A stretch of DNA of 64,000 bases from a virus (IMGVR_UViG_3300009184_000033:1-64000), one strand, 5' to 3'; positions 1,398 to 48,020 are shown, numbered from the stretch's first letter. The notes: generated by a model from the sequence alone, not told the origin. Numbers and translations: made by a program.

Positions 1398-4300
1398 TCA
1401 AGCGAAGATTACACCACTGTTAGTGATGATGAAGTCGATCGAGATGAATTCTACTGCGCGGGTCGGAACGAGGACGATCCTACCGTTGAGCTTGTTCTGC
1501 TCGACGTCTGACTGGGTGTTGTTGGTGTCGTCCATGATGACCTTGAACTTCTCGATACCAGCCTGGGACTGGACGAGTGCGAGGATCGGGGTGACCTGTC
1601 CAATGAACCGCGCGCGGGTGGCGGCGTTGTTCGGCTCGAACAGGAGGTTGTTTGCAACCTGGACCACGAGGCGCTTGACCTCGAGAAGCATCCTGCGGAC
1701 GTTGACGCGATCGAGCGCGCTCTTTGTCATCTGGAGAGTCTTCTGTCCGAAGATCACATATCCACCGTTCGGGAAGTTTGCGATCGGGTTGATCCTTGCA
1801 TCGTAGAGGTTGTCCCTATCTGCAGAGGTGAGCCTGACCTCGCTGTTCCTGACAAAGTCCATCGCACCGCGGTTGAAGCCTGCTGGGGCGAACCACGGGT
1901 AGGAAACCTTGTCGCTGTAGCCGAGGGCACCGAGCGCCGCGACAGATGACGGAACCTTGACTGGACGATTGTTGACTTCGTCGTTGATGAACACGTCTGG
2001 GAAGTAGGTCGCCGTGTAGTTGTTGTCAACCTGGCGTCCCTCAAACTGCTCGACCGTGGACCTGACGTCCCTCTTCGCCGTTGAGTCGGTGTAGAGCCTG
2101 TTGCCATCCTCATCGTAGTGCTGGATGTCCATCAGGTACATCGCCATCGAGTAGTCACGGTTGCTTACCGCGGCGTAGTCGGTGATGTATGTGTCTCTGA
2201 TTCCAGGAATTGCGAGGAGGTTGGTGCTCACCGTCATCGGATCGGTCATGATGTCGATCGCCGCGCGGTACGAGTTGATGATATTGTTGAGCCTTCCAGC
2301 TCCAGACATCGCGCCGTTGTTGGTTCCAGTGAGTCCGAGACCACCCGTGTATGTCGATGCGGCCTTTCCACCAGCGTCAGTTGAGGAAGCCTTGTCAGTG
2401 AGAAGGAGGTTGTCCTTATCGAGGATATTGACTCCATCGAATCCACCATACATCGGCGCCGTGAACTTTGCGTAGTCAGTGAAGCGGTTGAACTTCACTG
2501 AGCTTGAGTGGACCAGCGTGGCCATCGTGATTCTGCCACTGAGAGTTCCGTCATTGACTGTGTAGTTCACTGCGTCCGGTGCGCCGTTCCTGATGTATGC
2601 CGCATCCTTCATGTGCTCAGCGGCAGAGCCGGTGAGTGTGGAGAGGTTGGTCTCTGTGTTGACGAAAGCGACCTTGGCGAGCGTGAACTTGTTATTGTTG
2701 AACGCATCGGCGCCAGAGCCCGTCACGAGGTTGTCGAGCTTGAAGATTCCCTGGAACTTGCTGTAAGCCGTCAGGAGCGGGTTGAGCATGTCTGAGGAGT
2801 TCGGGTTGTAGATCGCGTTCTCAGTAGAGGACGTGAGCGGGAGAGACTCGAACTTTGTTCCCCAGTAGAGCCTGGCATCGACCCTCTCGTTCTTGCCCGG
2901 CTGTCCAGCAAAGTACGGAGAGATGTTGGTCTCTCCACGCGTGACCTTGAATCGGAGCGGGAGAGGAGGAACGATGGAGCCCGTGAGGTTTGTCGCCGCG
3001 AGAGCCGAGGTCCTGACCACTGCTGGAAAGCCGAAGGTCGTGCCATCGAAGGCGAGGGCAGAGTGGCCGAGGTCCGTCATGCTGTTTGTGGTCTTGAGGA
3101 CTGGAATTCCACGGAATCCGAACGGAAGGGCATCGGCAGGAACCTCTCCCCTATCGATCGAAGAGTTGATCACCACTCTCACGAATGCCGAGCGGTTCGG
3201 GTACTTGCCAGATATAACGATTCGGCGCTCGTCTTCGTCAGTAGAGTCGAAGTTGAACCTTGCAGCGTAGTCTCCGATTATCCTGCCGATGTACTTCTCG
3301 CTGTTTGGATCGAGAGTGAGGGCAGGGAAGGCCTCGAGGATTGCAGGGTTGGTATCGGTGTCGTCGAAGCGGCGGACCTGGACTTCGAAGGTTCCGTAAT
3401 CGTAATTCGGATCAGTAGAGGCGCGGATGTTCGCTATCGAGATCTTCACCTTGTCGTTGGCGTAAACGCCATCGCTCAGCGCCTCGAAGTGGAAGAGGTC
3501 AAACTCCACCTTTCCGTAGGGCTGGGAGATGAACTCGGTCGTCTGTGGCGTCGTGAATCTCGTGTCAAAGCGTCCGAATGAGTTGGTCCAGGAGTCTGAG
3601 AGTCCAACGGGATTTGTCGAGCTAGAACCAGAGATCAGTGCGATGGAGTTTGCTCCGAGATCGACGCCAGCAAGCTCGTTCTCGACTGCAAAGTCGAGAT
3701 AGAGAAGGTGGTTGAGCTCCTGGAACTTCCTCGGATCGGTGTTGAGTATCTTTCCAACGTAGTTGTTGCTGTGCGGGTTCAGAGAAGCGCTGTAGACCCT
3801 TACGCCTGCCACACCGTCGTCGTTCGAGAACACAGAGCCCTCGCTTGAGGACACAATAAACTTGAAGTTTGTGAGGTCGCTGACGGTCGCCAGGTTGTCG
3901 CTGGCGTTGACGTTCGAGGCATTGACGGTCTGGTTGTGGTCCAGAACCACGCCGCGGGAGGCTGTGGTGAAGAACAGGACAGCCCTCACCAGATTCGGAG
4001 AGGTCGCAGTGTTGACGCTGGCGTTGTCTGAGAAGGCAGGGAAAGCGACCGCCTCAGAGGCAGAGACGTAGTGCTTTGCGCATAGGAAGGTGACAGTGCC
4101 TCGTGCAGAGGCGCCAGACACATCAGCCGCCACGCTGGCCACCTTGAATCCGGCATTCTTGACGATTCCGTAGGTGGAGGTGTTCGTCATGTCTGTCGTC
4201 GACTCGTTGGCGCCAGCTCCGAGAACTCGGAGATACGTGACTGCGTCCTTGTTCTTCAGGTATTCACGGGCAGCGTATGGTCCATGGCGATCCGGATCAA

Positions 4301-4478: not shown

Positions 4479-4510
4479 CCTAATCTCCTTTTACGATTTG
4501 CGGTCTTTCA

Positions 4511-4517: not shown

Positions 4518-4528
4518 CAGGCCGAGCG

Positions 4529-6471: not shown

Positions 6472-6474
6472 GGG

Positions 6475-7641
6475 TTATCCTATCACGATGCATTTGCCCA
6501 TCGGGACTGGCACAGATTTGAGAACCTTCATCAGGTTGTCAACCTTGCTAGCCTCGGTCTCAAGCATCTTGTCATACGTCATGGTGTCGAGAAGCTCCTT
6601 GAGCTGGGTGTACATCTTCTCCTTGTCTTCCCTGGCCTGACTGATCAGGTCAGTGCCGTTGAGCTGGAGATCTCCTCCAGGGATCGGCACAGTTCCGAAC
6701 TTGCTTCTGACAAGTCCGAGGATCTCTCTCGACAGAGCCAGTGTGTACTCTCTGATCCACTGTCTTCCGATGGAGTTGATGAATTTGTACTGTATGTTGC
6801 CAAACGAGACGGTGGCGAGGCTGTTAGTGCCATAGATTGTCGGGTCATTGAAGGCAGCCTCGTCTGGCTTGCTCTGGAATCCCACCCTGAACCAGAGCTT
6901 TGGTGGGATATCTTGCGTAGGTGTCGGGAAGATCCTGATCTGAGTTCCGCTGGTCCGATAAGAGTAGTTTGAGCGCCTGACCCTGTTGGAGAGACCGAGC
7001 TGGCCACCGCGCAGGACGTCCTCGAACGTCGGGAGGACGTAGAACACGGTCTCAGGGGTGAACGACTCAAAGCTGAACTCATTGTTCAGGTAGTTGATCG
7101 CTGATGTGGTGTCGAAGAATCGATACGCAGCCTGTGGAGAGAAGTGAAAGATCTCATAGATCTTCATCTTGCCACCCGGGTTCATGCTGGAGCTGAATAT
7201 CTTGTTTCCGTCTCCATCGACAAGATTCTCGTAGATGTCGTAATCCTGGATGTTCTTCGAAAGCTGTATTGATCCAGAGATTGTGTTGTGGACCCCGCCG
7301 CCGATTGCCGCCTCCTGGGCGTAAGGCTGAGAGAGGCGCAAGAAGAAGTCCAGGGACTGGTGGAGGTACTTGTGCTGGTGATTGCTTCCTGTCGGAGTTC
7401 CCATGAGCGTCGCCATCTGGGACTTGGCCTGGTACTCATTGATGATCTTACCATATTCCAGCGTGGCCTCTTCAAAGCAGGCCCAGATCTGCTTCTTGGT
7501 GAGCTCGACGCTGAGTATGTCATCTCCAAGCTTACGCTTAACAAACTTCACCAGGCCATCAGCCTCGCTCTGGAAATCTGCATCAGAGTCAAAGAAGCCG
7601 AACGGCGTAGGTGAGAGAGTCTGGTAGAACATTGATGACAT
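6475..7641 (-). CDS. Neck / head-tail adaptor protein (T4 gp13-like), 388 aa
   Basis: KRKLG...VELTKKQIWACFEEA at the N-terminus; WIREYTLALSREILGLVRSKFGTVPIPGGDLQLNG at the C-terminus. Confidence 0.8.
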   Translation of the reverse strand: MSSMFYQTLSPTPFGFFDSDADFQSEADGLVKFVKRKLGDDILSVELTKKQIWACFEEATLEYGKIINEYQAKSQMATLMGTPTGSNHQHKYLHQSLDFFLRLSQPYAQEAAIGGGVHNTISGSIQLSKNIQDYDIYENLVDGDGNKIFSSSMNPGGKMKIYEIFHFSPQAAYRFFDTTSAINYLNNEFSFESFTPETVFYVLPTFEDVLRGGQLGLSNRVRRSNYSYRTSGTQIRIFPTPTQDIPPKLWFRVGFQSKPDEAAFNDPTIYGTNSLATVSFGNIQYKFINSIGRQWIREYTLALSREILGLVRSKFGTVPIPGGDLQLNGTDLISQAREDKEKMYTQLKELLDTMTYDKMLETEASKVDNLMKVLKSVPVPMGKCIVIG

Positions 7642-8051: not shown

Positions 8052-8480
8052 TCAGGTGCCGCCGACGGTGAGGGAGCCGCTTGACGCCATGATGAGGTAG
8101 CTCTTGCCGTCTGAGACTAGCGCCACAGATGAGCCGAGAATGTTGTTGAGCGTGAGCTTGCTGCCGATCTTGCCGTCCGCTGCGTCTGTGAACACCTTGG
8201 TTCCGACAGCCTCAGCCGAGCCAGTCAGAGAGTAGGCGTGGGCAGAACCAGCCCTGATAATGAACATCGAGCCGGGATATGCTGACGCCAGAGGCATCGA
8301 GCCAGTTGCTGCTCCGCCAGCGTTGAACAGGTAGACACCTGGTGCTGAGACCGTGGCGTCACCGCCGTTCGAGGCTGTGCTGAGAGCCTGGACTGGAGAG
8401 AACGGCATCGTCTCAAACTGAATACCAGAACCGGACTCCTGGACGAGTCCCCTTGCTGCATCATAAGTTACTTTTGGCAT
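8052..8480 (-). CDS. Small virion protein, candidate head decoration protein (142 aa from MPKVTYD)
   Basis: Start moved to ATG 8480 because AAGGAGG lies directly upstream. Gly/Ser/Ala-rich beta-type sequence; first gene after the MCP. Function inferred from position only. Confidence 0.6.
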   Translation of the reverse strand: MPKVTYDAARGLVQESGSGIQFETMPFSPVQALSTASNGGDATVSAPGVYLFNAGGAATGSMPLASAYPGSMFIIRAGSAHAYSLTGSAEAVGTKVFTDAADGKIGSKLTLNNILGSSVALVSDGKSYLIMASSGSLTVGGT

Positions 8481-8552
8481 GTGATCCTCCTTTGCTCCGA
8501 ATGCTTCCAATCCCCCGTCGGTGTCAGGTGATCACTGGATTGGGCTTGTCAT

Positions 8553-13940: not shown

Positions 13941-14411
13941 CTAGATTGGACCGCCCCTCTTTGGCATAAACGCCAGATTTGCCCAATTGCCGGCGCCCTC
14001 AAAGAGGTCTGCAGGATCTGAGTTGGCTACCTTGAGCGTCGCTTGATCCACGCTTCCCTCTCTGAGACTAGCTAGCCCCGGATTCTTCTCAGCCTGGATC
14101 ATCTGCACCAGCGTGGTATTTGCTGTGTCCGCAAGAATATCGGCGAGTATTGGATCGCTGGTCACTCTTGCAATTGTCTGGGCATGCGTATTTACTTGTG
14201 ATGCTGGTCCGACCCTAGTGTTCTCAGCCAGCTTCCTGCGGAACTCAGCCTGGTCTGGCATCTTATTTGCCATTGCGGGTCTTGGAAGCGCCTGACGCAA
14301 AGACTTCGATTCAGCAATCTTGGAGCTTGAGCTCACAAGACCTTCGCTCAGGATCTCGACAAGGCACTCCTTGACAATCGACTTGAGCTCATCTCTGGAG
14401 AGCTTACTCAT
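13941..14411 (-). CDS. Putative internal head / core protein, 156 aa
   Basis: TGATG-coupled to the upstream gene; N-terminal LSRDELKSIVKECLVEILSEG; several L/I-x-E-[SG] sites. Confidence 0.7.
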   Translation of the reverse strand: MSKLSRDELKSIVKECLVEILSEGLVSSSSKIAESKSLRQALPRPAMANKMPDQAEFRRKLAENTRVGPASQVNTHAQTIARVTSDPILADILADTANTTLVQMIQAEKNPGLASLREGSVDQATLKVANSDPADLFEGAGNWANLAFMPKRGGPI

Positions 14412-14815
14412 CAACCGACTCCGAGAACGCCATTGGAGGCGCTGATCGCAGGCAGAGAGCCTGCTGGGATATTTGTCAGTCCGGCAAGAATGCTAAACGG
14501 TACAGCCGATGAGGAGCCAGAGAAGAACAGCGTGGTGCACTTCACCTCTAGTCTCGGTGTGGTCTGACCAGCCTGGACAATGAACTTGTTTCCACCATTG
14601 GATCCCGTGAGGGAGAAACCGAAAGCAAGGTTATCTGATACCGCTCTTGTCGCGCTGGTGCCCTGGTTGCTGATCACGACCCAGCGAGCAACATATGGAA
14701 ATGTGACAGAGGTGATACCATTGGCTGTAGTAACAGATGAAGTCACGTATGGGATTACGGACTGCTGGTACTCAGGAACGTAATTGTGATTGAGATTTGG
14801 CCAATTGGTTGACAT
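14411..14815 (-). CDS. Small beta-rich virion protein, 134 aa
   Basis: TAATG-coupled to the protease gene; Ser/Thr/Gly-rich and nearly uncharged. Confidence 0.65.
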   Translation of the reverse strand: MSTNWPNLNHNYVPEYQQSVIPYVTSSVTTANGITSVTFPYVARWVVISNQGTSATRAVSDNLAFGFSLTGSNGGNKFIVQAGQTTPRLEVKCTTLFFSGSSSAVPFSILAGLTNIPAGSLPAISASNGVLGVG

Positions 14816-18287: not shown

Positions 18288-18305
18288 CAACCCACTCTAA
18301 TGATG

Positions 18306-18312
18306 TAAATAT
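18306..18312 (-). promoter_or_regulatory. Putative late promoter ATATTTA
   Basis: 18 nt before the portal ATG. Confidence 0.65.
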
Positions 18313-18338
18313 CACCACAGACGGCTAGACATAAACTA

Positions 18339-19949: not shown

Positions 19950-19952
19950 GGA

Positions 19953-23750: not shown

Positions 23751-23760
23751 GTTTCTCCGA

Positions 23761-24720: not shown

Positions 24721-24723
24721 ACG

Positions 24724-25284: not shown

Positions 25285-25310
25285 GTTCAAAGGTATCTTG
25301 CAGGAACTGA

Positions 25311-29715: not shown

Positions 29716-29733
29716 ACTTGAATCTCCACGCTA

Positions 29734-29740
29734 TAACTAT
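29734..29740 (-). promoter_or_regulatory. Putative late promoter ATAGTTA
   Basis: 18 nt before ATG 29715; embedded in the palindrome GCTATA-GT-TATAGC. Confidence 0.65.
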
Positions 29741-29762
29741 AGCACTAAGCAAAATGAAGTGG

Positions 29763-35299: not shown

Positions 35300-37662
35300 T
35301 ATCTGTTGCTCCTCAAGAGTGTTCTCTCTGGTACGCTCTGGTCTATTGAGATAGACACAGGTCCGACTGGTTGCTTAAACTGCATGCCTCTCTCCACAAG
35401 AATTACCCTGTACTTCACTTCTCCAAGAAGATTTGCCAGCTTTCGATCTTCAAAAGCGAACGGAGAGCCAGAATCGAACTTGCTGCGCGAGGCTGTTCCA
35501 AGAACTCTCTCAGAACCCGAGTACTCTCCAAGAATCAAGAAGTGGTCGACTTCAGTGACGTCGCCGTTGACTGACCATGTCAGGTAGTTTACACGATTTG
35601 GTGCGTCTTGCTGGACCGCGAGGTCAGATACTTCTGGCCTCTTGATAGAGGGGCTGACCTCTATCGTCTTTTGCTCGCCCATGCCACCGATCTCCACGCC
35701 GTCTTCAAGTGAGTTCTTGACAATCTGTTGCTGGGACGGAAGCGACTCAATTCTCTTGATGCCAGAGCTTCTCCACTTTCTGTACCTGAACTTGTACCCG
35801 TTGCCAGTCTTAACGTCTTCTCTCTGCACCACCGTGAGATAGGAGACAGAAGCGGTGTTGACTGCAAGGAGCTTCACGATGTACTTGTACACGTGAGTTG
35901 GATCTCCATTGAATGACACCGTGATCGGACCAGGGCTATAGAGAGTCGGTATCGTCACCATGGCTCCGGTCTCAAGGTCCACCCTGGTGATCTTGTACCT
36001 GGAAGTGACAGAGAGCTGGGACTTGTTGTTCTCTCGCTCTTCATCGAACTTGTCACTGAGTCCTGACGAAACTATCTCACTCTGGAGAGATCCGGCCACC
36101 GTTGTGGTTCGAGTTTCATCTATCTGGATTACGTGGGTGATCAAGTTGCCGTTTGCCGAGCTGTTTGCGAGAGAGACGCTAAAGTCGATTTCAAGTATCT
36201 CCCTCTTTTTCTCCAGCACGGTTATGGGTATCGTGATCTTCTCGAGCACCTCACAGCCACCAGATATGAACCTGACACGGTAAACGTAGGGAGTGTACTC
36301 GATTATCTGCTGGTCAACGTACGGCGTGTTCGGCGGCACTGAGGTGAGGGTTTCGTATGAGTCTGAGTACTTGTCTTTCCTCTCAATCTTGACGGCGTCA
36401 ACAAAGTCGGGAACATTTTTGGTGTACACCGTCACTGTGTCACCACTCTGCTCTGCAAATGCTTCCAGCTTGATGGACTCATAGCTTATTTTTCTTGCCG
36501 CTGGAATCGAGACGCAATCCATGATCTTTGAACTTCCGTTCTTGACTGGCAGGTCCCTTATCCCAGACAGAGTGTATGACCTAGACTCAGACTTGTTGCC
36601 AAAGTCGACTTTTCCCGTGACTATCGTGGATGACTTCGGGAGTATCTTGCCCGAAGAAACTTTGGTGACCGTGAATGCCTGATTGACTATGGCATGCTGT
36701 TCAAGGTTGTAGAGCATGGGAAAAGGATTCGGGTTCGATATCCTGATCGAGTCTTTGCCAACCGTGAACTGGCCATTAGTGAGAGTCAGGCTCATGTCTT
36801 GAGCCCTGGTGCACAGGTTCTGAAACTCGGTCCTGTTCTGAAAACCAAACGAAGACTTGAGCTTGGGGACCTGGGATCGGTAGAACACGAGATCCAAGAA
36901 GTACTGCCTCTTTGCCGCGAGGCTCAGGAATTGCTGTTCGGTGAGAGAGTTTATGACCACGACTATTTCACAGGGCTTGTACTTCTGCTTTGCGCTCTCC
37001 GATGTTATCTTTGGGCTTGATGGTTGTGCTTCATCTAGAAGTTCAAACAGCTCAAGAGACGGAAGGAAATTGCTTGGAATTCTCCGAGAAAACATCTTGA
37101 CAATCTCGCTCGGATGAAGAGAGTACTCTTCAAAAGACTTCTTTGCGTTTCTAGACGCAGAGACTAAGTCGATATCTCTTGGCTTTGTTTCTGTCTCTAT
37201 CCATGAGTTCTTTGCGACATCCACACTCGGCAAGAACAGCTCATAGTTCTCTTCGTTGATTCTGCCGGAACCGATTCTCGCGACAGTCTGATCATCCAAG
37301 TAGGATGAGACTTTCACCCTTGTGCTGGCCAGCTCTGAGGTCTTTCTTGAGTCAGTAAGAGTCGTCCTGACTCTTGAGATGAAGCTGGTGACAGAGCTGG
37401 ATACTCCCTCTGGCGAAGTGTCTGATGTGAAGTAGCTGAGCTTCGGCTCTGTGTGATCTGTTATCCTGGCCTCTATCTCATCAAACTCCTTGATGAGAGC
37501 CAGATGCAGGTTCAGGTAGACACGCATGACGTACTTGACGTCGTAGAGCAGGCTGGCAGCCCCTTTGGAAGACCTCACGGTGCGCTGTGCCACGGTGACA
37601 TTCACGAAGTCAGGCTCGACAAACACAAAGTCCTTGTCTCTGAGCAGTTCTGGAGTGAGCAT
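35299..37662 (-). CDS. Virion structural protein with C-terminal FN3-like modules, 787 aa
   Basis: VKIERKD...PYVDQQIIEYTPYVYRVRF; NYLTWSV...FAFEDRKL...VKYRVILV. Confidence 0.6.
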   Translation of the reverse strand: MLTPELLRDKDFVFVEPDFVNVTVAQRTVRSSKGAASLLYDVKYVMRVYLNLHLALIKEFDEIEARITDHTEPKLSYFTSDTSPEGVSSSVTSFISRVRTTLTDSRKTSELASTRVKVSSYLDDQTVARIGSGRINEENYELFLPSVDVAKNSWIETETKPRDIDLVSASRNAKKSFEEYSLHPSEIVKMFSRRIPSNFLPSLELFELLDEAQPSSPKITSESAKQKYKPCEIVVVINSLTEQQFLSLAAKRQYFLDLVFYRSQVPKLKSSFGFQNRTEFQNLCTRAQDMSLTLTNGQFTVGKDSIRISNPNPFPMLYNLEQHAIVNQAFTVTKVSSGKILPKSSTIVTGKVDFGNKSESRSYTLSGIRDLPVKNGSSKIMDCVSIPAARKISYESIKLEAFAEQSGDTVTVYTKNVPDFVDAVKIERKDKYSDSYETLTSVPPNTPYVDQQIIEYTPYVYRVRFISGGCEVLEKITIPITVLEKKREILEIDFSVSLANSSANGNLITHVIQIDETRTTTVAGSLQSEIVSSGLSDKFDEERENNKSQLSVTSRYKITRVDLETGAMVTIPTLYSPGPITVSFNGDPTHVYKYIVKLLAVNTASVSYLTVVQREDVKTGNGYKFRYRKWRSSGIKRIESLPSQQQIVKNSLEDGVEIGGMGEQKTIEVSPSIKRPEVSDLAVQQDAPNRVNYLTWSVNGDVTEVDHFLILGEYSGSERVLGTASRSKFDSGSPFAFEDRKLANLLGEVKYRVILVERGMQFKQPVGPVSISIDQSVPERTLLRSNR

Positions 37663-38564
37663 TACTCAAACACCATGGTGAAAATGTTGACAAAGTTCAA
37701 GTTCTGAGCCGTGTCCCTGTATAGCTTTCCAGCGAAGAACACATGCTGGAACTTCCCATCTGAGCCTTCGAACTGGCCACCATCTACGACGGAAAGCTTC
37801 ATCACGCCGTTTGTCCCATGCTCAAACACCTGCGAGACCAAGTTGTTGCTGTCACTTGTGTTGGTGAATCTTATCTCTGAGATCTGCTTGCCAGCAAGGT
37901 ATTGCTGGAGCTCTTCCAAAGTGTCTAGTGGATTCTCGTTGATCTGTGTATAGGTTGCCATCTGCTTTGGGGCGATAGACTCATCGATGGGTCTATCGAG
38001 AGGCGGCATGAACTTATAGTTGTCAAAGTTCCCGAACCTGTAGTCTTGGAACACGCACTCGATATCATCGACGTAAGCTCGAGAAATTCCATTCGACTGT
38101 GAGACGAGGCTATCTGTGATGTAGAACTCCGTGTTGTCCACCCCCACTCGGAATCCGTAGTCCAGCTGGACCCTTAGCGTGTCTCGAGATCCAATGATCA
38201 TCTGCCTTCTGAAGCTGTCTATTGAAGAGCTTGATATGCTCTCGTACACTTGGACGCTTCCAGTTAGACTATGACCTGGAACTCTTCCGTTTGTCGTCTC
38301 AAAGTCATTGGTGCTGAACGGGAGCATGTCTCCATCAAAACTGGTCTCTGGAATGATCGAGTCGTCATTGTTGGACGAGGCTTCAAAGTAGATGCTCAAG
38401 CCCGGGTCCTCCAAGTACCCGTCTGAATCCTTGGAGTACACCACGTTTCGATCAGTGAAGCTTATGAAGTTCGCGCGCAGCATACCAGACGCAATCTGTC
38501 TTCTGCCCTCTCGGGTGATGATCGCGTCTACTACTCTTGACTTGTTGTCGAGGATGCCAGCCAA
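37662..38564 (-). CDS. Baseplate / tail structural protein, 300 aa, TTG start
   Basis: (M)AGILDNKSRVVDAIITREGRRQIA...ISFTD, paralogous N-terminus to 28993-29715. Confidence 0.7.
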   Translation of the reverse strand: MAGILDNKSRVVDAIITREGRRQIASGMLRANFISFTDRNVVYSKDSDGYLEDPGLSIYFEASSNNDDSIIPETSFDGDMLPFSTNDFETTNGRVPGHSLTGSVQVYESISSSSIDSFRRQMIIGSRDTLRVQLDYGFRVGVDNTEFYITDSLVSQSNGISRAYVDDIECVFQDYRFGNFDNYKFMPPLDRPIDESIAPKQMATYTQINENPLDTLEELQQYLAGKQISEIRFTNTSDSNNLVSQVFEHGTNGVMKLSVVDGGQFEGSDGKFQHVFFAGKLYRDTAQNLNFVNIFTMVFE

Positions 38565-39008: not shown

Positions 39009-42000
39009 CTAGATCGTGCCAGATGGATATGTCCTGTTCCTCACGACTTCATCATCAAAGTATGGGAGCGAAGACGTGGCATAGATGCTCAAGTTGCAGG
39101 ACTGGGTGGACATTGGATCTTTGCTGGAGCCAAGAAGGGTCGGATTCTCGTGCACTGGAGTCCTGAACTTGATCTCGATAGGGAACTTGGTTGGAGATTC
39201 AGTCTTTGGCCTGGTCGCCTTTTTGATCCTAGCAGATTTGCTGTTGGTGGCTGGAAAGATCTGAGACTTTTCTTGTATACTCTCCAGAGTTATCGCGGCG
39301 TACTGTCTCTGCTCAAGCATGTCTCTGAGATGTCCATAGTGGGTTGCTCTAAAGACAGCGCTGGTTGGCATCGGATTTGCGTTGATCAACCCGTACTTAA
39401 ATCCGACTGGCTTCTGGAGTGTGACGAGGGGAAGGGTCACATTTGCAAGAGTTGCCATAAATCTTGTTCTTTCTGCCGGAAGATGGATGCCATAGGGACC
39501 ATCTCCGATTCCAAACAGGATCCTGTTAGAAACTTCTGCGGGTAGTTGCTTAAGACCACCGACAATCGATGCATAAGCCGTAGAAGAAGTGTCTAGCGAA
39601 GTTCTTCTGATACCACTCAAGACATTTGAATTGCGCTGAGGATAAGAGAAATAGCTCAAGACGTCAGTGTACCCGCTTGAAGTCAAGAAACCGATATCTT
39701 GATTTACTAATCCCCTGTCTAGCTCATAGACAATAGAGTATGTCAGTTTTCTCTGCCTGCGCTGGAGGCCTGCAAACTCGCTTGAGAAGGGGTACTTGTG
39801 GAGCCAGCTGTCATTGATGTACTTTGTTCCTCCGGTCGCATTTCCAAAGAAAATCTCATATGTGCTACCTCCACCGCTGCCGTTTGTGCTAAATGGCGTG
39901 ATCTTGAGCAGATACAAGCCATCTTTTAGGCTCTGGCTGGTGCCAGATCCAACCAAGATCGGAGTGTAGCCAGTGGCTCTCCACATTTCCACGGGATCTG
40001 GAACAAAGCTGTCATAATAACGCTCTGCGGCATCAACGATCCTGATGTTTCTCTGCAAGCTAGCCATATCCCCTGCAGTTCCATCGATCACACTTCCAAA
40101 GACTTTTCTGATAGTGTTATCACCCTCAATCAGCTCAGAAGAACCAGATCTTGGCCAGCCAGTCCTTGGAACTGTCATGGATCCAGTGATCCAGCTAGAG
40201 CGGACCGATCCCGTGTACTCATTGATGCTAGCCACCTCGTGCTGATCTAGGACAGGGTTCAGATAGTGCAGAGACTCATGCACGGCTGGAGTATTAAGAG
40301 TCTGAGGGAGAGATGTGTGGTACTTTTCTCCGTCCTTGACATACCTTCCTTTTATGACCAGGCTCGTTATCTGCGGAGGCAAGCTCAGGTAAGATCCCGT
40401 TGAGAAAGAGTACTGCGGATATACTTCTGGGTCAGTGGTATAGAAGTCTGGCGCCGTATTGTTGACGTTGATTCCAAAGATCAGGTTATCTGTTGGCAGG
40501 AGCAAGTAAGACGTTTTGACAACTTCGGCGCTCTGGTTGTAGATTTGGAAGTCTCCAGGAGTCTTGACACTGAGCACTCCTGGCTTTCTACCGCTGAATG
40601 GAAATTTGGTTCTTGCGGATGGCCTGGCAGCCAGAGTGACAGTATCAAATGGGTTTCTTGCAGTGGTTGCAGTTACTTCCTGCGTCACCAGTGGTATCGA
40701 TTTTCCTGTCGGATCCACTCCCTCGCAGGAATAGTCATATGTGACTCCCGGAGTGGCTAACAAAACTGGCTGTGGGAGATTAGAAGATCCACCTCCCCAC
40801 CAACCACCTCTATCGAGATATCCAACTGATACCTGGTGGATATTTGCAGGTGCAATCTTTGGAGTCAGGTCTAAGGTACAGTCAAAACCTATCGAGCTAG
40901 TCCCTATTGCGGTCTGTCCATCTTGTCCCCACTCGTGCGAGAAAGCAAAATTGTCTTTGTTTATGAAGTAATCTAGACTTGCAGTGTAGCGTATCTTGAG
41001 ATTTCTTGTTCCTACTGAGTCTGCAAAGCTACCACTGAAGTAGTTGTTCTTGTTCCAGGCAAGCAGGGTGCTGTATGAGACCAGCTCCCTATAACTTGAT
41101 GAGACGTTCTTTGCGGTGGCGACATTGGCGTTGGGTCCGTCTTGGCGTATCAGGAAGAAAGTGTAAGCGTCGAATGGATAACCACCGGTGAACTGGCCAT
41201 CGAAAATCTTGTTCAGGCTTCCTGTAACTCGAATCTCTATGCTCTCCACCTCGAACGCAGCATTGATGTAGTCGCTCATCTTTATGAGGTTGCTAGAAGT
41301 AGCATAGAACCTAAAATTTGATGGACCACCGAAGACGTTAGAGGGCTGTCCCACTGAGGCGAACGAGCTTGTGAAGTAGGAATTGATCACATCATCTCCC
41401 CCAGTTCCAAGCTGTGACAGAAGAGACACTGCGTCCATCGACATCTCATGGAACATCGTGGCGCGAGTGGTGATTGGACTAGTCAGCCTCTGGTAGCCGT
41501 TCGGAGCCGTGTATGTGGCGTTGGTGTGATTTGCCGGCCTGTAGTAGCGAAATCCCGTGACCGGATCTCTTGGACCCACGATGTCAAACTCATAACCATT
41601 CTTGCTGTTGTAGTAGAAGACGCCATTTGAGGTCTCTCTTTTGTACCCTGGAACGCCAGTTGTCAGGGCTCTAGAGAACCGGTTTACACTACCTGAGAAT
41701 CTCATATCAATCTTGATGACGTCTTTCTCTCCAACACTGTCGATATTCTGCTCCGTGAATGGCGCCAGATTTGGAGATGGCCTGTTGGAGTCTTGGTACG
41801 GATCGAACTCCGCATACACAGAGCTACCAAAACCACCGTAGACCGTGATTGTAGAGCCTGAGTTTGGGGTCGTAACTGCGCTTTTTCGAAGCCCATATGG
41901 GCTCTCGGTGGGTATAGCCGATGGATAAGAGACAGTAAGTGGCCTGCTTCCAGTCTGGAAGACCCTGACGTTCGTGTCGTCGAAACACCACGTACGGGAA

Positions 42001-42134
42001 CCAAGGCGATTCTGGTCTCCTGGCAGCTGGATTACGGGGTACTCTGATCTGCTATCCCTGTCAGCCAAGATGTTCCTGGGGCTGGCAGAGATCACACCAC
42101 TTCCAGAGAAGTTAGTTCTTGAGTCTATCTTCAC
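39009..42134 (-). CDS. Large virion structural protein (baseplate region), 1041 aa
   Basis: Ser/Thr/Gly-rich beta-type sequence; 4-nt overlap with the upstream gene. Confidence 0.75.
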   Translation of the reverse strand: MKIDSRTNFSGSGVISASPRNILADRDSRSEYPVIQLPGDQNRLGSRTWCFDDTNVRVFQTGSRPLTVSYPSAIPTESPYGLRKSAVTTPNSGSTITVYGGFGSSVYAEFDPYQDSNRPSPNLAPFTEQNIDSVGEKDVIKIDMRFSGSVNRFSRALTTGVPGYKRETSNGVFYYNSKNGYEFDIVGPRDPVTGFRYYRPANHTNATYTAPNGYQRLTSPITTRATMFHEMSMDAVSLLSQLGTGGDDVINSYFTSSFASVGQPSNVFGGPSNFRFYATSSNLIKMSDYINAAFEVESIEIRVTGSLNKIFDGQFTGGYPFDAYTFFLIRQDGPNANVATAKNVSSSYRELVSYSTLLAWNKNNYFSGSFADSVGTRNLKIRYTASLDYFINKDNFAFSHEWGQDGQTAIGTSSIGFDCTLDLTPKIAPANIHQVSVGYLDRGGWWGGGSSNLPQPVLLATPGVTYDYSCEGVDPTGKSIPLVTQEVTATTARNPFDTVTLAARPSARTKFPFSGRKPGVLSVKTPGDFQIYNQSAEVVKTSYLLLPTDNLIFGINVNNTAPDFYTTDPEVYPQYSFSTGSYLSLPPQITSLVIKGRYVKDGEKYHTSLPQTLNTPAVHESLHYLNPVLDQHEVASINEYTGSVRSSWITGSMTVPRTGWPRSGSSELIEGDNTIRKVFGSVIDGTAGDMASLQRNIRIVDAAERYYDSFVPDPVEMWRATGYTPILVGSGTSQSLKDGLYLLKITPFSTNGSGGGSTYEIFFGNATGGTKYINDSWLHKYPFSSEFAGLQRRQRKLTYSIVYELDRGLVNQDIGFLTSSGYTDVLSYFSYPQRNSNVLSGIRRTSLDTSSTAYASIVGGLKQLPAEVSNRILFGIGDGPYGIHLPAERTRFMATLANVTLPLVTLQKPVGFKYGLINANPMPTSAVFRATHYGHLRDMLEQRQYAAITLESIQEKSQIFPATNSKSARIKKATRPKTESPTKFPIEIKFRTPVHENPTLLGSSKDPMSTQSCNLSIYATSSLPYFDDEVVRNRTYPSGTI

Positions 42135-43042
42135 TTGAGCAGCCCTCCGAACGTGATGGAGTCAGTGCCGACCAGGCAATTGTCATAGACAAAACCGCAG
42201 CCAGTGGTCCGTGCCGTGAAGCTTGTCTGGGTGACATTGCTTCCTGACAGGCTAAGTGAAGTGATCTTGCTCTTCATCACAGAATCCTCAAGTGTGGCGA
42301 CCCTGGCTTCAGCATCATCAGAGTCTGTGAATGCGGGATTGCCAAAGTGTTCATCAGTAGTATACACAGGCTTTCCGTACAGTAACACCTCGTCGTCTGT
42401 GCCCATGCACTCTTTGAACGCCTCGAGGCTGGCGTCATTGCCTGGCTCATAGAAGCTCGACATCACATACGCCCTGCCGAGAGCCGACATTCCATAGGGT
42501 CCCGAGATCCCGCCGCGGGTCGCATGGGGCTCTGGATCCTGCTCATTTCCGAGGAACAGGGAACTCCTGATCGCGACGCTCCTGATGGTCAGCGGCTCGA
42601 TCACGCCATTCATGTCAAGGGGATCTATCGCGTTCGGATGGTCAAGGACTATCGGGTACTCGTAGGTTGGCCTCTTCTCAGTGATGTACTGCTTTGCGGA
42701 CAGGACACCCATCTCGAGGTATGGAGAGGTCGCCCTAAAATTGCGAGTGATTCCGTAAGTCGTGTCCTCGAGCTCGTAGTTCGGAGCCTTGATCACCTTG
42801 CTGGTGTCATCGCTTATCGTGCCGAGCTTCTCGATGGGGAATCGCAGGGAGTCATCAAAGAATCCCTTGGATGTGTCGTACTTGAGCACTCCATCTGAGC
42901 TCGAGACATATGTCACGTCCCTGTCAGAGCGCCCAATCAGCGGCAACAGGGACGAGCCGAAGGTGCGATAGTCCTTGACGTCAGTCCCCTGAAGGGTTGC
43001 TGATATGGATCCCGTGAATGATGGAGTCACCGTGGTTGACAT
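42131..43042 (-). CDS. Hypothetical baseplate-region protein, 303 aa
   Basis: TGATG-coupled to the upstream gene. Confidence 0.75.
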   Translation of the reverse strand: MSTTVTPSFTGSISATLQGTDVKDYRTFGSSLLPLIGRSDRDVTYVSSSDGVLKYDTSKGFFDDSLRFPIEKLGTISDDTSKVIKAPNYELEDTTYGITRNFRATSPYLEMGVLSAKQYITEKRPTYEYPIVLDHPNAIDPLDMNGVIEPLTIRSVAIRSSLFLGNEQDPEPHATRGGISGPYGMSALGRAYVMSSFYEPGNDASLEAFKECMGTDDEVLLYGKPVYTTDEHFGNPAFTDSDDAEARVATLEDSVMKSKITSLSLSGSNVTQTSFTARTTGCGFVYDNCLVGTDSITFGGLLK

Positions 43043-46000
43043 CAGAACCTCTTGAGCGATCCTACGATCTGCTGTAGAAAGATGTTGGATCCAATCCCAC
43101 GCCGGTCATTCTCGCCCATGTAAATATCCTCCTGGGCGTAACGCAGCTTTGTGCGCTCCATCATGTGGGACTCGATAACGTAGTTGATCCCGAGGAACCT
43201 GGTGTTTCTCGGAAGGAGCGCCTCGATCATTCCAGCCAGTGAATCATCGAACCACTTGTAGAACTCCAGCAGGTTCTTGTAGTTGACCCTCCCAGTCAGG
43301 CGTTTGAAGTACACCTCCCTGAGTCTCTGGAGCTCAGGATATCCCAGCGAGAACTGTAGCTCAGGGGCACCAATCGCATTGTCGAAGTAGTCCAGCGCAG
43401 AGATGATGTTGATCATGTCCTCGTTCAGGGCCCGCACCGATGAGATCTCGATTGAGAACCTGTTGTCATCAGTGACCGGCTCGTAGATCGGAATCGAGCG
43501 GACTGGAGCCTTGAGGGCATTGAACTCATCTATGTTGACCTGCTCATCGAATCCACGCACTCGGATCTTGTTGTCAGCAGTCCTCTCGTCGAACTGTGGG
43601 TTCAGGATTGTGAAGTTGAACTGCGCAGGTACCACGACATTGGTGTTTCCACCCAGGCCTGATGCCGAGAGGTGCAGAGAGTTCTGAGAGAAGTCGAAGA
43701 TGTCAAGCTTTCCAAGGGAATCAGAGCCCGTGGTGAGCTGGTCAGTGCTGGCGTCTATCCTCAGGCGTTCAAATGATCCAGAGTCCTTTGTCCGGAAGTT
43801 GTAATTCAGCAGCGGGTCATCCGAACCGAGCGACTTGAAGTTCCTGGCGTGCTCCATCGACTCGGCGGTGGTGAGATCCCTTGACCAGAATCTTATGTGA
43901 CCGACCTTACCCGTGAATTTTGATGTCCTCGTAAGGCTTGAGGTCGCTACCGTGGTGTCATTCAAGAAGCCGCCAGATCCCGCAGAGGTGACTGTGGCAT
44001 TTCCGATCTCAAAGAACGAACCGCTCGAGTTCCGTGTCGAGCTCTTGTTGGAGAACACGTTCGATGTCGGAGAGTCGAAGAACAGCTGGCTCTCCTCCTT
44101 GAATACCGTGAGGTCGCCAAATTCCTGCTTGCCAACTCTCAGGAAGTAAGATGACGTCGGAAATGTCTCCGTCGCATCTCCGATGTTCCTGCCGAAGGAG
44201 ACGTACCACTTGTCATTGTCAAACAGATTGACATCATAGACCTTGATCTCTGTGAACTGGCCCGTGCTTGTTGGGGCGAGATAGAGCGACAGGGATGGGA
44301 GGTCATCTCTGGTCGAGCCCGTTCCAAATGCGACCAAGTTTGCGACCAGCGCCCTTGTGCTGGCAGGTGCAGAAGATCCCGTGGTGTAGATTCTGGCGAG
44401 GCTCATGGTCGCGGGTTGGACCGTCGATAGACCACTGAAGTGGTAGTGGGCCTCGTAGGTCCAGCTGGCGGAGGTGAATAATCCGTCCGAGCTGTTCCCT
44501 GCGACAAATGGATATCCAGGCTCTGTCCTCGAGCCGGACAGGAACGGTGAGATGACCACCGCAGCGCTCGAAGTGAGCGCCAGCATGGTGGAGACCTCTG
44601 AGACCTTTGAGCGCTGCGAGTCGGTGGTGAGCAGTCGACTGCCACCAAATTCCCTGAAGCTGAAGCTGTTGTCGGGATTTATGCCTGCCGCCCTCATGAT
44701 TGCCTTGATAGAGTGCACAGTTCCCTTCGAGCGGATGATTTCGCTCATGTTTGTAAGAATACGCCTCCAGATCGTAGATTGAATCTGAGTCAACGACAGG
44801 GTGGCTGACGAGGCATTGGTCGTGAGGTCTCGACCCTCAAGGAACTGTGAAATGCTGGCGGCTGAGAATGAGTTCGGAAGCTGGAATCCGTAGTACTTTG
44901 CGACGTACGGCAGCATCAGGTCCGAGATTCCGTCCTGTGAGTTGTAGTCCACGTGAACCAGCTTTCCGAACTGGTCAATGAACAGCTTGACCTCATCGAA
45001 GAACTTAGCCCACATGTAGAGGATGGACGCGATAATCTGCGGAGATGAGATCTTGCCACCGCCTGGGAAGTCAATGCTATAGCCGTAGTTTCCCTCGAGG
45101 ATGGTGCCGTCATCAGGAAGACCCTGAGCCGCGGCTGACTCTTCAAGATAGTGGGCTGGAACCAGCTTCGTGATCAAGTTCGGGTTGTTGCTGTCGTAAG
45201 ATGACGCAGAGGTGAGCAGCGTGGAGTTTAGCGTGACGAGGTCTGGATAGCTTGGAAATAGTACAGGACTGTAGAATGGATCTTCGGTCGCAACTGGAAC
45301 TGGAAGAGAAGACGTGGTCCTGAGGGAGGTCCTGTAGTTGCTGATCTGAGTGTGGAGAGAGTTGCCTGAGAAGTCGAGGACGACGCGGTTGTTGTCATAA
45401 GTTCCAGGACCCTCGTTGAACCTCATGTAGAGGCGGAGGTCTGCCGATGGCTCCACTGTTCCAGAAGCGCTGGTCACTATAGCGGTCTTGGACCTGTTCC
45501 CGTGATAGAACTTGAACTCGTCTATCGAGCCGCTCAGGGTCTGCTTTGGCGTGAAAGCTGGAACTCCCAGAGATGTCAGGGACTGTGTGCTTCCTGACCC
45601 GATAATCAGAGGCGCGCTTGAGAAGTCGAACTTTGAGAACTCCACGGCTGACTGAGAGTACCCCAAGAGCTCACCGTCAACATACAGCTTCAGCGCTGGA
45701 GTTGTGGCGTATTTTCTCTCCATCACCGCAGCAACGTGGCTGAATCTGCCTCTTGCTATACCACAGCTCGCTGACATTGCCAGCGTACCGCTGGTCACCA
45801 GGAAGACGAGACTTGTTCCGACCCCTGATGAGCTCGAGAGCGCCAGCGTAAACCCGTGATTGTTGGTCCCGAGCTTCTGGAGGATCACCTGGTTGTCATT
45901 GCTGGCCACGTTTGCCGGAGCAAGATACATCTCAGCTGAGAATGACTTCTCAAGTGGGTCGATAACTCTCTGGCCAGACCTGTTCTTCGAGAGGGTCGGG

Positions 46001-46476
46001 TAGAGAATTCCAGCCCTGTCCTCGATAGAGACATAGGTTCCGAGACCTGCTGAGTACCCACCGCCCGGATTCTCGTTCCCTAGTGTGCCCGAGAAGTTCA
46101 GGTACCCGATATTTTTGGGCCAGGAGTCGTAGACCCACTTCTCAAATCCCGTGAGCCCGTCGATGAACTTGTTTATCTCAGACTTCGTGGAGTCGAAAGG
46201 AAAGTAGTTGATTATCGAGTCGAACGCGACGTTAGTCTTGCTCTCTGCGGAGTCAAAGAACGTGTGGTTTGCAAAGTTGGACCAGTCAACCGGCAGTTGC
46301 TGCGTGGATCTGAAGCCGTCTTCAAAGACCGTGAAGTCCACGCCGTTGCCGCCTCCGGACGACATCTCTGGAACCTGGGACATTGTCACGCCTTCCACGG
46401 CGCTGTTTCCATTCTGGAGCTTCTTGATGAAGCTTGGCGTGAAGATCTTCTGAGTGCTGTATGGATCTGTCGACAT
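43042..46476 (-). CDS. Baseplate wedge protein (gp7 / P2 gpI-like core) with two LamG-like domains, 1144 aa
   Basis: LPYVAKYYGFQL...IIRSKGTVHSIKAIMRAAGI (gpI-like); LamG patterns FSHVAAV...LYVDG...SGSIDEFKFY and KWYVSF...TGKVGHIRFWS. Confidence 0.7.
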   Translation of the reverse strand: MSTDPYSTQKIFTPSFIKKLQNGNSAVEGVTMSQVPEMSSGGGNGVDFTVFEDGFRSTQQLPVDWSNFANHTFFDSAESKTNVAFDSIINYFPFDSTKSEINKFIDGLTGFEKWVYDSWPKNIGYLNFSGTLGNENPGGGYSAGLGTYVSIEDRAGILYPTLSKNRSGQRVIDPLEKSFSAEMYLAPANVASNDNQVILQKLGTNNHGFTLALSSSSGVGTSLVFLVTSGTLAMSASCGIARGRFSHVAAVMERKYATTPALKLYVDGELLGYSQSAVEFSKFDFSSAPLIIGSGSTQSLTSLGVPAFTPKQTLSGSIDEFKFYHGNRSKTAIVTSASGTVEPSADLRLYMRFNEGPGTYDNNRVVLDFSGNSLHTQISNYRTSLRTTSSLPVPVATEDPFYSPVLFPSYPDLVTLNSTLLTSASSYDSNNPNLITKLVPAHYLEESAAAQGLPDDGTILEGNYGYSIDFPGGGKISSPQIIASILYMWAKFFDEVKLFIDQFGKLVHVDYNSQDGISDLMLPYVAKYYGFQLPNSFSAASISQFLEGRDLTTNASSATLSLTQIQSTIWRRILTNMSEIIRSKGTVHSIKAIMRAAGINPDNSFSFREFGGSRLLTTDSQRSKVSEVSTMLALTSSAAVVISPFLSGSRTEPGYPFVAGNSSDGLFTSASWTYEAHYHFSGLSTVQPATMSLARIYTTGSSAPASTRALVANLVAFGTGSTRDDLPSLSLYLAPTSTGQFTEIKVYDVNLFDNDKWYVSFGRNIGDATETFPTSSYFLRVGKQEFGDLTVFKEESQLFFDSPTSNVFSNKSSTRNSSGSFFEIGNATVTSAGSGGFLNDTTVATSSLTRTSKFTGKVGHIRFWSRDLTTAESMEHARNFKSLGSDDPLLNYNFRTKDSGSFERLRIDASTDQLTTGSDSLGKLDIFDFSQNSLHLSASGLGGNTNVVVPAQFNFTILNPQFDERTADNKIRVRGFDEQVNIDEFNALKAPVRSIPIYEPVTDDNRFSIEISSVRALNEDMINIISALDYFDNAIGAPELQFSLGYPELQRLREVYFKRLTGRVNYKNLLEFYKWFDDSLAGMIEALLPRNTRFLGINYVIESHMMERTKLRYAQEDIYMGENDRRGIGSNIFLQQIVGSLKRF

Positions 46477-48020
46477 CAGTTACCAACCCTGAACCTTCCA
46501 CTTACGCTCTTGTGAACAGTGCTCATACCGAAGTCATCGCATAAAAACTCTACTTCGTAGGTGTAGCCCTCCTGTAGAGATTTCATGAGAATGTTGAAGT
46601 ACATTCCATCTGAGTCGCTTGAGAGCCTGGTGCTATTGTTGAGCTTGTCAAAGGGAATCACTATCGTGTTGGAGTCAGCAAGCCTGATTTGGTAGTATAC
46701 GCTCGACAAGATGATTCCCTTTCTGACATACGGGGTGCGGAACACTGCGTCTTCTCGGACTTTGTCAAAGACAAAGACTTGAAGCTTCACGTCATCGGTC
46801 TTTGAGTAGCTCTGCCGGAGATTTGTTATCTTGAACTGCAGGTCTGCGGGGTCTCCAATCTGAGATGTCGCCATCGGCTTGTTGACTCTGAGAGTCTCTT
46901 TCTTGAAGGTGAAAGAGTCGTCCAGGGAGTTCCAGTATGCGTCGAACTCGATGAAGTCGCTGCCTGAGGCATTCATGATGTCTATAATTCTGTTAGAGCC
47001 TTGGACTCGGCTCCTGCTGAACATGTCTACAGCAAACGAAGCAGAGTAGAATCCTGTCACCCTGGTGTCATTTGTGCCCTGCTTGTGTTGCGAACCCGTG
47101 AAGTACAGCGTAAGGTCGTTCTTCACCATCTTCAGTAGCAGGCAGTTGTCTCCTGTGACGGGTGAGTTGCTGGATCCAGAAGTTAGATTTGAGGGAGCGC
47201 CGCGGACAAAATTGCGGAAGAAGATTGACCCAGACTGGTTGAACACCAGATCGTTCCTGTGGTCTTGCGCTGAGTCGTCCCACGAGACGGATACGATTGG
47301 AGACTTGAACTTGTTGGCAGAGTTTCTTGAGGCGAACCTCTTGACAAATCTCGTCTTGTTGTCGGTCTCCTGAGAGCCAGAGAAGGAGACCCTAAATCCG
47401 CAGTCTGGTATCAGACCTGCTAGGGTGGCTGAAACGACTGTCGTGATGTCTATGTCTAGATTCTCGTTGCCGTTCACGAAAGTCTGATAAGATCCGAGAT
47501 GAATTACTCCCGCTCCAAGATTTCCCGAAGCAATGACGTCGATGTTATTCGATCCAAGAAGACCCAGGGCGTTTGCGCCAGTGGCGTGCCATAGCACGCT
47601 GGCACCGTCGACATAGGAGCGTGTAACAAAGTTGCATGCATCGAGGTCGCTGAAGGCTGATATGTCCCTGCCGATTCCTTCGTCAAATGAGTTTGAGAGA
47701 GGGAAGACGGATACCGTGAAGTTCGATGGAGTCGCCTGGCCTGCAATGACGTCAAAAAGCTTTAAGCTGGCTTTAAAGTTTGAAGCGTTCAAGTCTATCG
47801 AGGAGCCTGTCAGATCTCTGACGGAACTTAGATCAAACTTCAGGAGTATCCTGGAGAGCTCGATGGGGTTCTCTTCGCTCGATAGCTCCGACTCGTTGTA
47901 GAGCTTGAACAGGTCGAGAGTGCCAGCCTTGCCAACATTAGCATCGGTAGCCCTGAAGCTGTTGTTGATTATCTTGTTTGTGATGTAGGTGTCGGCGCTT
48001 GCCGTGAGCAACAACTGCAT
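46476..48020 (-). CDS. Baseplate-region structural protein, 514 aa (N-terminal beta-sandwich, DNRLRE-like by eye)
   Basis: ASADTYI...SRILLKFDLS...ASLKLF pattern; lies between the gp6-like and gp7-like genes. Confidence 0.6.
   Translation of the reverse strand: MQLLLTASADTYITNKIINNSFRATDANVGKAGTLDLFKLYNESELSSEENPIELSRILLKFDLSSVRDLTGSSIDLNASNFKASLKLFDVIAGQATPSNFTVSVFPLSNSFDEGIGRDISAFSDLDACNFVTRSYVDGASVLWHATGANALGLLGSNNIDVIASGNLGAGVIHLGSYQTFVNGNENLDIDITTVVSATLAGLIPDCGFRVSFSGSQETDNKTRFVKRFASRNSANKFKSPIVSVSWDDSAQDHRNDLVFNQSGSIFFRNFVRGAPSNLTSGSSNSPVTGDNCLLLKMVKNDLTLYFTGSQHKQGTNDTRVTGFYSASFAVDMFSRSRVQGSNRIIDIMNASGSDFIEFDAYWNSLDDSFTFKKETLRVNKPMATSQIGDPADLQFKITNLRQSYSKTDDVKLQVFVFDKVREDAVFRTPYVRKGIILSSVYYQIRLADSNTIVIPFDKLNNSTRLSSDSDGMYFNILMKSLQEGYTYEVEFLCDDFGMSTVHKSVSGRFRVGN

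Follow-up and report, generated by a model that had tools for sequence, protein, structure and literature searches.

A clade-specific [ST]-G-S motif on the virion periphery of distant T4-like phages and its possible reading by a phage glycosyltransferase pair

In this study we ask why one tripeptide, [ST]-G-S (serine or threonine, then glycine, then serine), recurs at three to six times its chance frequency in the outer structural proteins encoded by IMGVR_UViG_3300009184_000033:1-64000 and by hundreds of relatives, and what might read it. The window (the whole stretch of DNA that was analysed, 64,000 nucleotides) covers the opening 64 kb of an IMG/VR viral contig of 132 kb, which CheckV rates as 39% complete. 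Its genes lie nearly all on the minus strand and its source is an uncultured T4-like phage, whose closest relatives by major capsid protein (MCP; 32-48% identity) are LR756508, an uncultured 484-kb phage, Flavobacterium phage immuto, Microcystis phage Mel-JY01 and Rhodothermus phage RM378. An initial annotation had proposed that the tripeptide is the acceptor site of the phage's own glycosyltransferases. Here we show that [ST]-G-S, or in relaxed form [ST]-[G>A,S]-S, is a short linear motif, sharp and oriented, that is kept by selection on peripheral virion proteins (baseplate-distal proteins, fibres, outer sheath domains and some head-surface proteins) in a large clade of distant T4-like aquatic phages. 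As to its meaning, sequence comparison suggests that it could quite possibly be an O-glycosylation sequon read by two adjacent glycosyltransferases of the GT4 type, here called GT4-A and GT4-B, with lineage-specific sugar islands elaborating the glycan.

Throughout, the motif is counted as [ST]GS out of all GS dipeptides in a protein (Table 1). The five hand counts of the initial annotation (10/18, 8/14, 6/9, 5/8 and 5/8) were exactly reproduced, and its smaller counts hold as well (4 in the sheath, 2 each in MCP, neck and a 134-aa protein, and 4 in a protein given as 142 aa that has 152). In the five outer proteins concerned (1041, 1144, 514, 775 and 446 aa) 34 motifs were observed where shuffled sequences give 7-8.5. 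The 12 proteins at 25311-48020 together contain 43, compared with 11.5 expected from whole-protein shuffles and with 12.3, 12.9 or 13.7 when residues were shuffled within local blocks of 30, 15 or 8 residues (z 8.2-9.4; none of 2000 shuffles reached 43). Head, neck and sheath proteins show 15 where shuffles give 5-7 (z 3-4), and the remaining genome shows 11 where ~17 are expected. When all tripeptides were surveyed without bias, SGS ranked first (z 10.5) and TGS second (z 7.6), SGT, TGT, SGA, AGS, NGS and GGS lay at expectation, and [ST]AS and [ST]SS were mildly enriched (z 2.8 and 2.0).

It might be argued that such counts are an artefact, raised by Ser/Thr/Gly-rich low-complexity or repeated segments. 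The outer proteins do exceed the enzymes in S, T and G content, and fibres outside the window carry the motif within internal repeats. However, z stays above 8 even after 8-residue-block shuffles, neighbouring tripeptides of the same composition are flat, the flanks in the window proteins are unrelated, and the pattern recurs across ~155 diverged relatives. The first three of these refute an artefact of composition or low complexity, and we regard the chance that the count was raised in this way as close to nil. The excess survives every composition-preserving shuffle, which supports this part of the initial annotation. When the 43 window sites were compared, their flanks resembled one another no more than randomly chosen windows do, and hence these sites are independent and not repeat copies; repeated homologous segments are thereby ruled out for the window proteins, although they do account for parts of the fibres outside the window. 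At the nucleotide level, the 127 sites of the contig are encoded by 81 different 9-mers. This diversity of codons rules out a DNA-level motif and places the signal in the protein.

Within the particle the motif keeps to the peripheral virion proteins and to that part of the sheath which lies outside its core, in agreement with the enrichment in outer structural proteins that had been claimed. Seven inner or core virion proteins summed have 1 of 13 GS. In the sheath all sites fall within residues 283-616, N-terminal to the conserved C-terminal core, and in the sheaths of four enriched genomes 16 of 16 sites lie outside this core, which we take to be the inner layer by homology with T4 gp18. The MCP sites belong to its N-terminal part. 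Among non-virion proteins (TerL to RuvC together with 52229-69608; 7694 aa) only 2 of 32 GS are preceded by S or T, one of them in the RTGS of a sulfotransferase that the initial annotation had set aside.

The motif-rich proteins themselves have no match in PHROGs or Pfam besides Laminin_G_3. Compared with its orthologues, the 1041-aa protein has both conserved and lineage-specific sites. The N-terminal ~100 aa of the 446-aa protein recur in several paralogues of Mel-JY01 and immuto, and for the 577-aa structural protein tblastn gave no match among isolate phages. Four fibre genes beyond the window (contig 71560-83089) are richer still, with 16/23, 14/26, 13/21 and 13/23, altogether 56 of 93 GS.

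Several observations were made in this fibre region. Two large fibre proteins (contig 71560-77270) have a common N-terminus, MAL-[IV]-G-x-ISGS, so that here the motif sits inside a conserved N-terminal attachment segment. A 687-aa fibre (contig 81026-83089) contains a unit VTGSF...MTGSIGTVDGSTAF three times. Adjoining the fibre genes is a 343-aa protein (contig 69775-70806, minus strand) with GLEYA/PA14 and F5/8 type C lectin domains; it is Thr/Gly-rich and yet, unlike its neighbours, has 0 of 5 GS in the motif. Between motif-rich fibre genes lies a PIN-PhoH fusion gene (contig 79657-80973, minus strand) with homologues in immuto, Mel-JY01 and S-PM2. The highest count of any single protein, 35 of 40 GS, was found in a 1521-aa protein (79363-83928) of G018, a complete 182-kb relative.

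Is the motif a general trait of phage fibres and baseplates? This is ruled out by the genome-wide ratios of observed to expected counts, which are flat in T4 (0.71) and phiKZ (0.82) and reach 1.49 in S-PM2, compared with 2.4-2.7 in this contig, G001, immuto, Mel-JY01, RM378 and G018. Mel-JY01 shows the strongest enrichment among the genomes (45/63 GS). When the post-baseplate proteins of each enriched genome were surveyed without bias, SGS and TGS again came first or close to it, and the same survey in T4 and LR756508 gave nothing. A baseplate-J profile retrieved more than 580 relatives from IMG/VR, and in the best 80 of them 901 of the 1552 GS in proteins that follow baseplate J belong to the motif (171 expected), compared with 67 of 474 (52.5 expected) in those that precede it. 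A second set of 78 relatives, seeded from LR756508, gave 860/1488 (167 expected), and both sets summed (~155 IMG/VR relatives) gave 1761/3040 (~338 expected). The enrichment is therefore clade-specific, and it is both stronger and more widespread than the initial annotation had indicated. Hosts and habitats within the clade are diverse: a thermophile, a freshwater cyanobacterium and a Baltic flavobacterium are represented, with hosts in Bacteroidota and Cyanobacteria and one unknown host.

A clade-wide profile was built from 856 unique sites in the 80 relatives. In the frame xGS only S (6.0x) and T (4.9x) are raised at x, and in [ST]Gx only S (5.5x), with T at 1.5x. In [ST]xS the order is G (5.5x), A (2.9x), S (2.6x) and Q (1.75x), which agrees with the [ST]-[AS]-S forms that had been described as related and common. 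No increase is seen for NGS and DGS, which resemble Asx turns. Among the flanking positions, W (7.9x) and F are preferred at -2 and V, L, I and F at -1, the preference at +1 is for L and I with P excluded (0.1x), and charged residues are depleted from -4 to -1. A hydrophobic residue stands at -1 in 48-65% of the sites as compared with a background of ~30%, as the initial annotation had noticed. In RM378, the post-baseplate proteins (64825-75968) over-represent TLS, TAS and TYS besides TGS and SGS, and this T-x-S excess hints at a looser form of the motif.

Turnover of the motif could be followed in an alignment of the 514-aa protein family (24 orthologues). It occupies about 8 columns in 9-17 sequences and about 17 more in one to three sequences, and where it is lost it becomes SSS, SAS, TAS, SGT or unrelated residues. 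In pairwise comparisons of orthologues, exact [ST]GS sites are gained de novo where close relatives differ wholly. Such turnover, combined with the sharp orientation, is as expected of a tag that is read by another factor.

The 514-aa protein was modelled well by AlphaFold2 (predicted local distance difference test, pLDDT, 86.8; predicted template modelling score 0.84) as a chain of beta-sandwich domains, for which Foldseek returned carbohydrate-binding modules and Ig-like domains; one domain resembles chondroitin-/alginate-binding carbohydrate-binding modules (template modelling score ~0.64 on target). Judging from this model the protein may be a glycan-binding peripheral baseplate protein. 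Its six sites lie at the C-end of a helix (twice), between a strand and a helix, at a coil-to-strand junction, at a strand end and in mid-strand. The model of the 1144-aa protein is poor (pLDDT 55); in its confident domains the sites come just after or before strands or in coil. Of the 14 sites mapped on the secondary structure of the two models, 12 fall in a loop or at its boundary, one in mid-strand and one where a strand starts. Because the contexts differ between sites, no single fold element underlies them.

These positions bear on a second explanation, in which the motif would be an unmodified structural or folding element: a hydrophobic pair followed by [ST]-G-S would be a favoured means of closing a strand or helix where a loop begins, would be inherited together with beta-sandwich and fibre domains, and the GT4 pair would be unrelated to it. 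The hydrophobic preference at -2, -1 and +1 with proline excluded at +1, the 12 of 14 sites at element boundaries or in loops, the ~8 semi-conserved columns among orthologues and one site that occupies a conserved Laminin_G_3 C-terminal strand position would all suit such an element. On the other hand, T4 and phiKZ make similar beta-rich fibres and baseplates without the motif, and the turn-formers that would be expected (NGS, DGS, SGT and SGN) are not enriched. Glycine can be replaced by alanine or serine, which makes a requirement for positive phi unlikely. The sites vary in context from helix C-end to strand end, strand start and mid-strand, and they arise de novo in unrelated sequence. The orthologues in LR756508 can be aligned and the motif is gone from them, and hosts and habitats are too diverse for a common physical condition. 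On balance we consider a purely structural role somewhat unlikely.

If the motif is a tag, which factor might read it? The initial annotation had linked it to a cassette of glycosyltransferase, gmd and fcl genes, and this link fails by a refuting condition that the annotation itself had set: immuto, Mel-JY01 and RM378 lack gmd/fcl and are equally or more strongly enriched, and LR756508 shows the reverse, with gmd/fcl present in an unenriched genome. What does track the motif is the GT4 pair, GT4-B especially, and thus the idea of an acceptor site keeps its ground in so far as it rests on a sharp, oriented, turning-over tag and on this pair, and loses it with gmd/fcl. Unique among the enzymes of the 132-kb contig, GT4-B occurs in immuto, Mel-JY01 and RM378 and not in LR756508, T4, S-PM2 or phiKZ. 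The pair is present in 5 of 5 near-complete enriched genomes (immuto, Mel-JY01, RM378, G003 and G018), and the two genes lie side by side in immuto, Mel-JY01, RM378 and G018 as well as in many IMG/VR loci. GT4-B has 3118 homologues on phage-sized contigs, many at 55-60% identity. The products of 53628-54782 and 54779-56032 score 32.3 and 49.0 bits with Pfam Glycos_transf_1 (cut-off 26.4), and both keep the EX7E motif of GT4 enzymes, E286 and E294 of GT4-A being found in at least 90% of 13 sequences and E270 and E278 of GT4-B being invariant and nearly invariant. Among proteins of solved structure they come closest to generic GT4 enzymes and to B736L, a chlorovirus glycosyltransferase.

The order of the locus is conserved, running from a PD-(D/E)XK nuclease through GT4-A and, where present, GT4-B to a sugar island (this contig 53628-59581, immuto 47964-59944, LR756508 303690-309877). 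The content of the island is swapped: GDP-fucose genes are found in this contig, WecE-type aminotransferases, a 'pilin glycosylation protein', an epimerase and further glycosyltransferases in immuto, and a CMP-sugar cytidylyltransferase with a GT29 sialyltransferase-like gene in LR756508. In this contig and in immuto the pair heads the variable island, a layout that fits conserved priming followed by lineage-specific elaboration, whatever the acceptor. In Mel-JY01 GT4-A is split into two open reading frames (190 and 302 aa; 83441-84932), which could stem from a frameshift, from an error in sequencing or from a genuine division of the gene. As hydroxymethyl-pyrimidine DNA glucosyltransferases the pair is unlikely, since no thymidylate-synthase/hydroxymethylase homologue (PF00303) was found in Mel-JY01 or RM378, an argument that is confined to this chemistry. 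A paper on glycosylated 5-hydroxycytosine mentions none of these phages, nor GT4.

LR756508 is the lineage in which GT4-B is missing and the motif has almost disappeared. It has the nuclease, GT4-A and a glycan island. In a TerL tree it falls inside the enriched clade, with RM378 outside (support 95/96), and its closest baseplate-J relatives (40-45% identity) are all enriched; the low-motif state of LR756508 must thus be derived. The first protein after baseplate J has an orthologue in LR756508 that is alignable over the full length and contains 0 motifs, whereas 47 sister orthologues contain 4.1 on average, and in the sheath of LR756508 the count is 0 of 3 GS compared with 16 of 26 in enriched sheaths. 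A tripeptide survey found no replacement motif in LR756508.

From this joint presence and joint loss we infer that the motif is modified, that the modification would be a glycan and that GT4-B would be its writer. Several points weigh against this. The hydrophobic flanks at -2, -1 and +1 and the position at strand or helix ends would also fit a partly buried structural cap, and the non-virion proteins show no clear depletion (2 motifs, 4.0 expected). LR756508 keeps GT4-A and its glycan island without the motif, and its post-baseplate proteins retain a weak excess (6 of 23 GS, 2.3 expected). Two strongly enriched incomplete contigs, G008 (55% complete) and G016 (70%), show no GT4-B in the part recovered. 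Similarity of the pair to known protein O-glycosyltransferases is non-significant (GtfA, E 0.75). The pair adjoins a PD-(D/E)XK nuclease and in RM378 lies among replication genes, and a nucleic-acid or other target must be considered. Finally, the association with GT4-B amounts to shared ancestry and a single event of co-loss and is not a statistic.

A further explanation is a tag read by some other factor. It might carry another Ser/Thr modification (phosphate, acyl or nucleotidyl groups, added by a host or phage enzyme), or it might serve to dock an assembly chaperone or a decoration protein; shared descent would then account for its co-distribution with GT4-B. A sharp, oriented, turning-over and periphery-restricted motif would suit any reader, only one independent co-loss ties it to GT4-B, and the enriched incomplete contigs mentioned above show no GT4-B. 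A common host enzyme is made unlikely by hosts that span Bacteroidota, Cyanobacteria and one unknown host, and no other enzyme of the 132-kb contig has a matching phyletic profile, although the contig is 39% of a genome and other candidates may lie elsewhere. We judge a reader of this kind to be unlikely, slightly more so than a purely structural role.

We therefore return to O-glycosylation by the GT4 pair as our tentative preference. The translationally coupled GT4-A and GT4-B (53628-56032) would put the first sugar or sugars on the Ser/Thr of the motif. This priming would take place in the cytoplasm, before or during assembly, and the variable island beside the pair would extend the glycan, with genes for GDP-fucose in this phage, for amino-dideoxy sugars in immuto and of a sialyltransferase-like kind in LR756508. 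The outcome would be a sugar-coated tail periphery.

How does this compare with known systems? Mycobacteriophages have their own glycosyltransferases, and their glycans are reported to lie on the C-termini of capsid and tail-tube subunits (Freeman et al. 2023, as summarised in PMC12619734). The likeness lies in phage-encoded glycosyltransferases, in structural proteins as proposed targets and in a sugar coat as the proposed outcome. The chemistry is shown there; the present candidate sites, proposed from sequence, are an internal tripeptide in baseplate-distal, fibre and outer sheath proteins, and the candidate enzymes are a GT4 pair. An acceptor region of the mycobacteriophage type, at the C-termini of capsid or tail-tube proteins, is not seen here: the sites are internal, and MCP has them only at residues 136 and 151.

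Other likenesses come from bacteria and from a eukaryotic virus system. GtfA/GtfB of the Gram-positive accessory Sec system prime Ser/Thr of serine-rich-repeat adhesins in the cytoplasm, ahead of export or assembly, after which further glycosyltransferases extend the glycan; GtfB is a non-catalytic partner and the substrates are long disordered Ser-rich repeats. The phage pair is similar in being two adjacent, co-inherited genes of the GT-B/GT4 type (with a 4-nt overlap in this contig). It differs in that both enzymes keep EX7E, with no catalytically dead partner, and in that the candidate sites are single tripeptides within folded beta domains. In sequence the pair has no significant similarity to GtfA/Gtf1 (E 0.75-0.9), and these enzymes are absent from the GT4-B profile search. 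The chlorovirus capsid is glycosylated by virus-encoded, host-independent machinery, with glycans N-linked at atypical Asn motifs. Chlorovirus B736L (PDB 3oy2) is the best full-length solved match to the GT4-B profile (E 1.6e-5) and also matches GT4-A (E 2e-5), a likeness that does not extend beyond the GT4 fold, and B736L is itself a protein without an established function. The autotransporter heptosyltransferases (TibC/TibA, Aah/AIDA-I) are cytoplasmic enzymes whose target, a surface protein with a beta-rich fold, is modified on many Ser at strand-turn positions. They belong to another enzyme family and use another sugar, their substrate is a single repeat-containing protein, and we liken them by description. 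A literature search on Mel-JY01 and on an O-glycosylation sequon in phages found nothing relevant.

Table 1. Features of the window and their motif counts ([ST]GS out of all GS dipeptides)
Feature	Coordinates	Strand	[ST]GS/GS	Remarks
Tail sheath, 1026 aa	1398..4478	-	4/6	PHROG sheath match at 683-1025
Neck / head-tail adaptor-like protein	6475..7641	-	2/2	
152-aa protein	8052..8510	-	4/8	Adjoins MCP gene; family searches without match
gp23-like MCP, 632 aa	8619..10517	-	2/9	Residues 136 and 151
134-aa protein	14411..14815	-	2/3	Upstream of prohead protease
Prohead protease, portal, TerL, SbcC, primase, RuvC	14815-25290			Assigned by family searches
Block of large proteins	25311-48020			Family matches limited to two Laminin_G_3 domains
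775-aa protein	25311..27638	-	5/8	Laminin_G_3 domain
446-aa fibre-like protein	27651..28991	-	5/8	
240, 577, 1268, 787 and 300-aa structural-cluster proteins	28993..38564	-	0/4, 1/4, 3/10, 2/5, 1/3	Weaker; family searches without match
1041-aa baseplate-distal protein	39009..42134	-	10/18	No family match
303-aa protein	42131..43042	-	2/3	
1144-aa protein	43042..46476	-	8/14	Laminin_G_3/ConA-like domain
514-aa protein	46476..48020	-	6/9	Directly after baseplate J
Baseplate J-like (616 aa) and gp25-like (164 aa) inner baseplate proteins	48020..50365	-	0/4	Negative contrast
GT4-B glycosyltransferase, 384 aa	53628..54782	-		Candidate reader/writer; 4-nt overlap with GT4-A
GT4-A glycosyltransferase, 417 aa	54779..56032	-		Partner of GT4-B; also in unenriched LR756508
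PD-(D/E)XK nuclease	56087..56884	-		Neighbour of GT4 pair, kept in this contig, immuto, Mel-JY01 and LR756508
gmd, FkbM methyltransferase, fcl-like epimerase	56921..59581	-		Start of lineage-specific sugar island that does not track the motif

In conclusion, we characterized a three-residue motif on the virion periphery of one phage clade together with its co-distribution with GT4-B. Even without any sugar, a five-fold excess of a tripeptide in the virion periphery of one clade, absent from T4, needs explaining. Going further than the motif itself, and on sequence-based grounds to be taken with some reserve, an abundant aquatic T4-like clade (thousands of contigs, with hosts from Bacteroidota to Cyanobacteria) might perhaps run its own sequon-directed O-glycosylation, in which the GT4 pair would prime dozens of [ST]-G-S sites per particle and swappable islands (fucose, amino-dideoxy, sialic-acid-like) would diversify the coat. 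Three carriers in culture (immuto, Mel-JY01 and RM378) and the natural loss lineage LR756508 as a control make this claim directly testable. If true, this would be the first case of a bacteriophage particle with a defined O-glycosylation sequon whose writer is encoded by the virus, and it would offer glyco-engineers a three-residue cytoplasmic O-glycosylation tag along with its writer enzymes. Phage particles are usually regarded as bare protein, and a sugar coat of this kind would change our view of host range, receptor binding, resistance to proteases and grazers, and immune recognition in very common aquatic phages.

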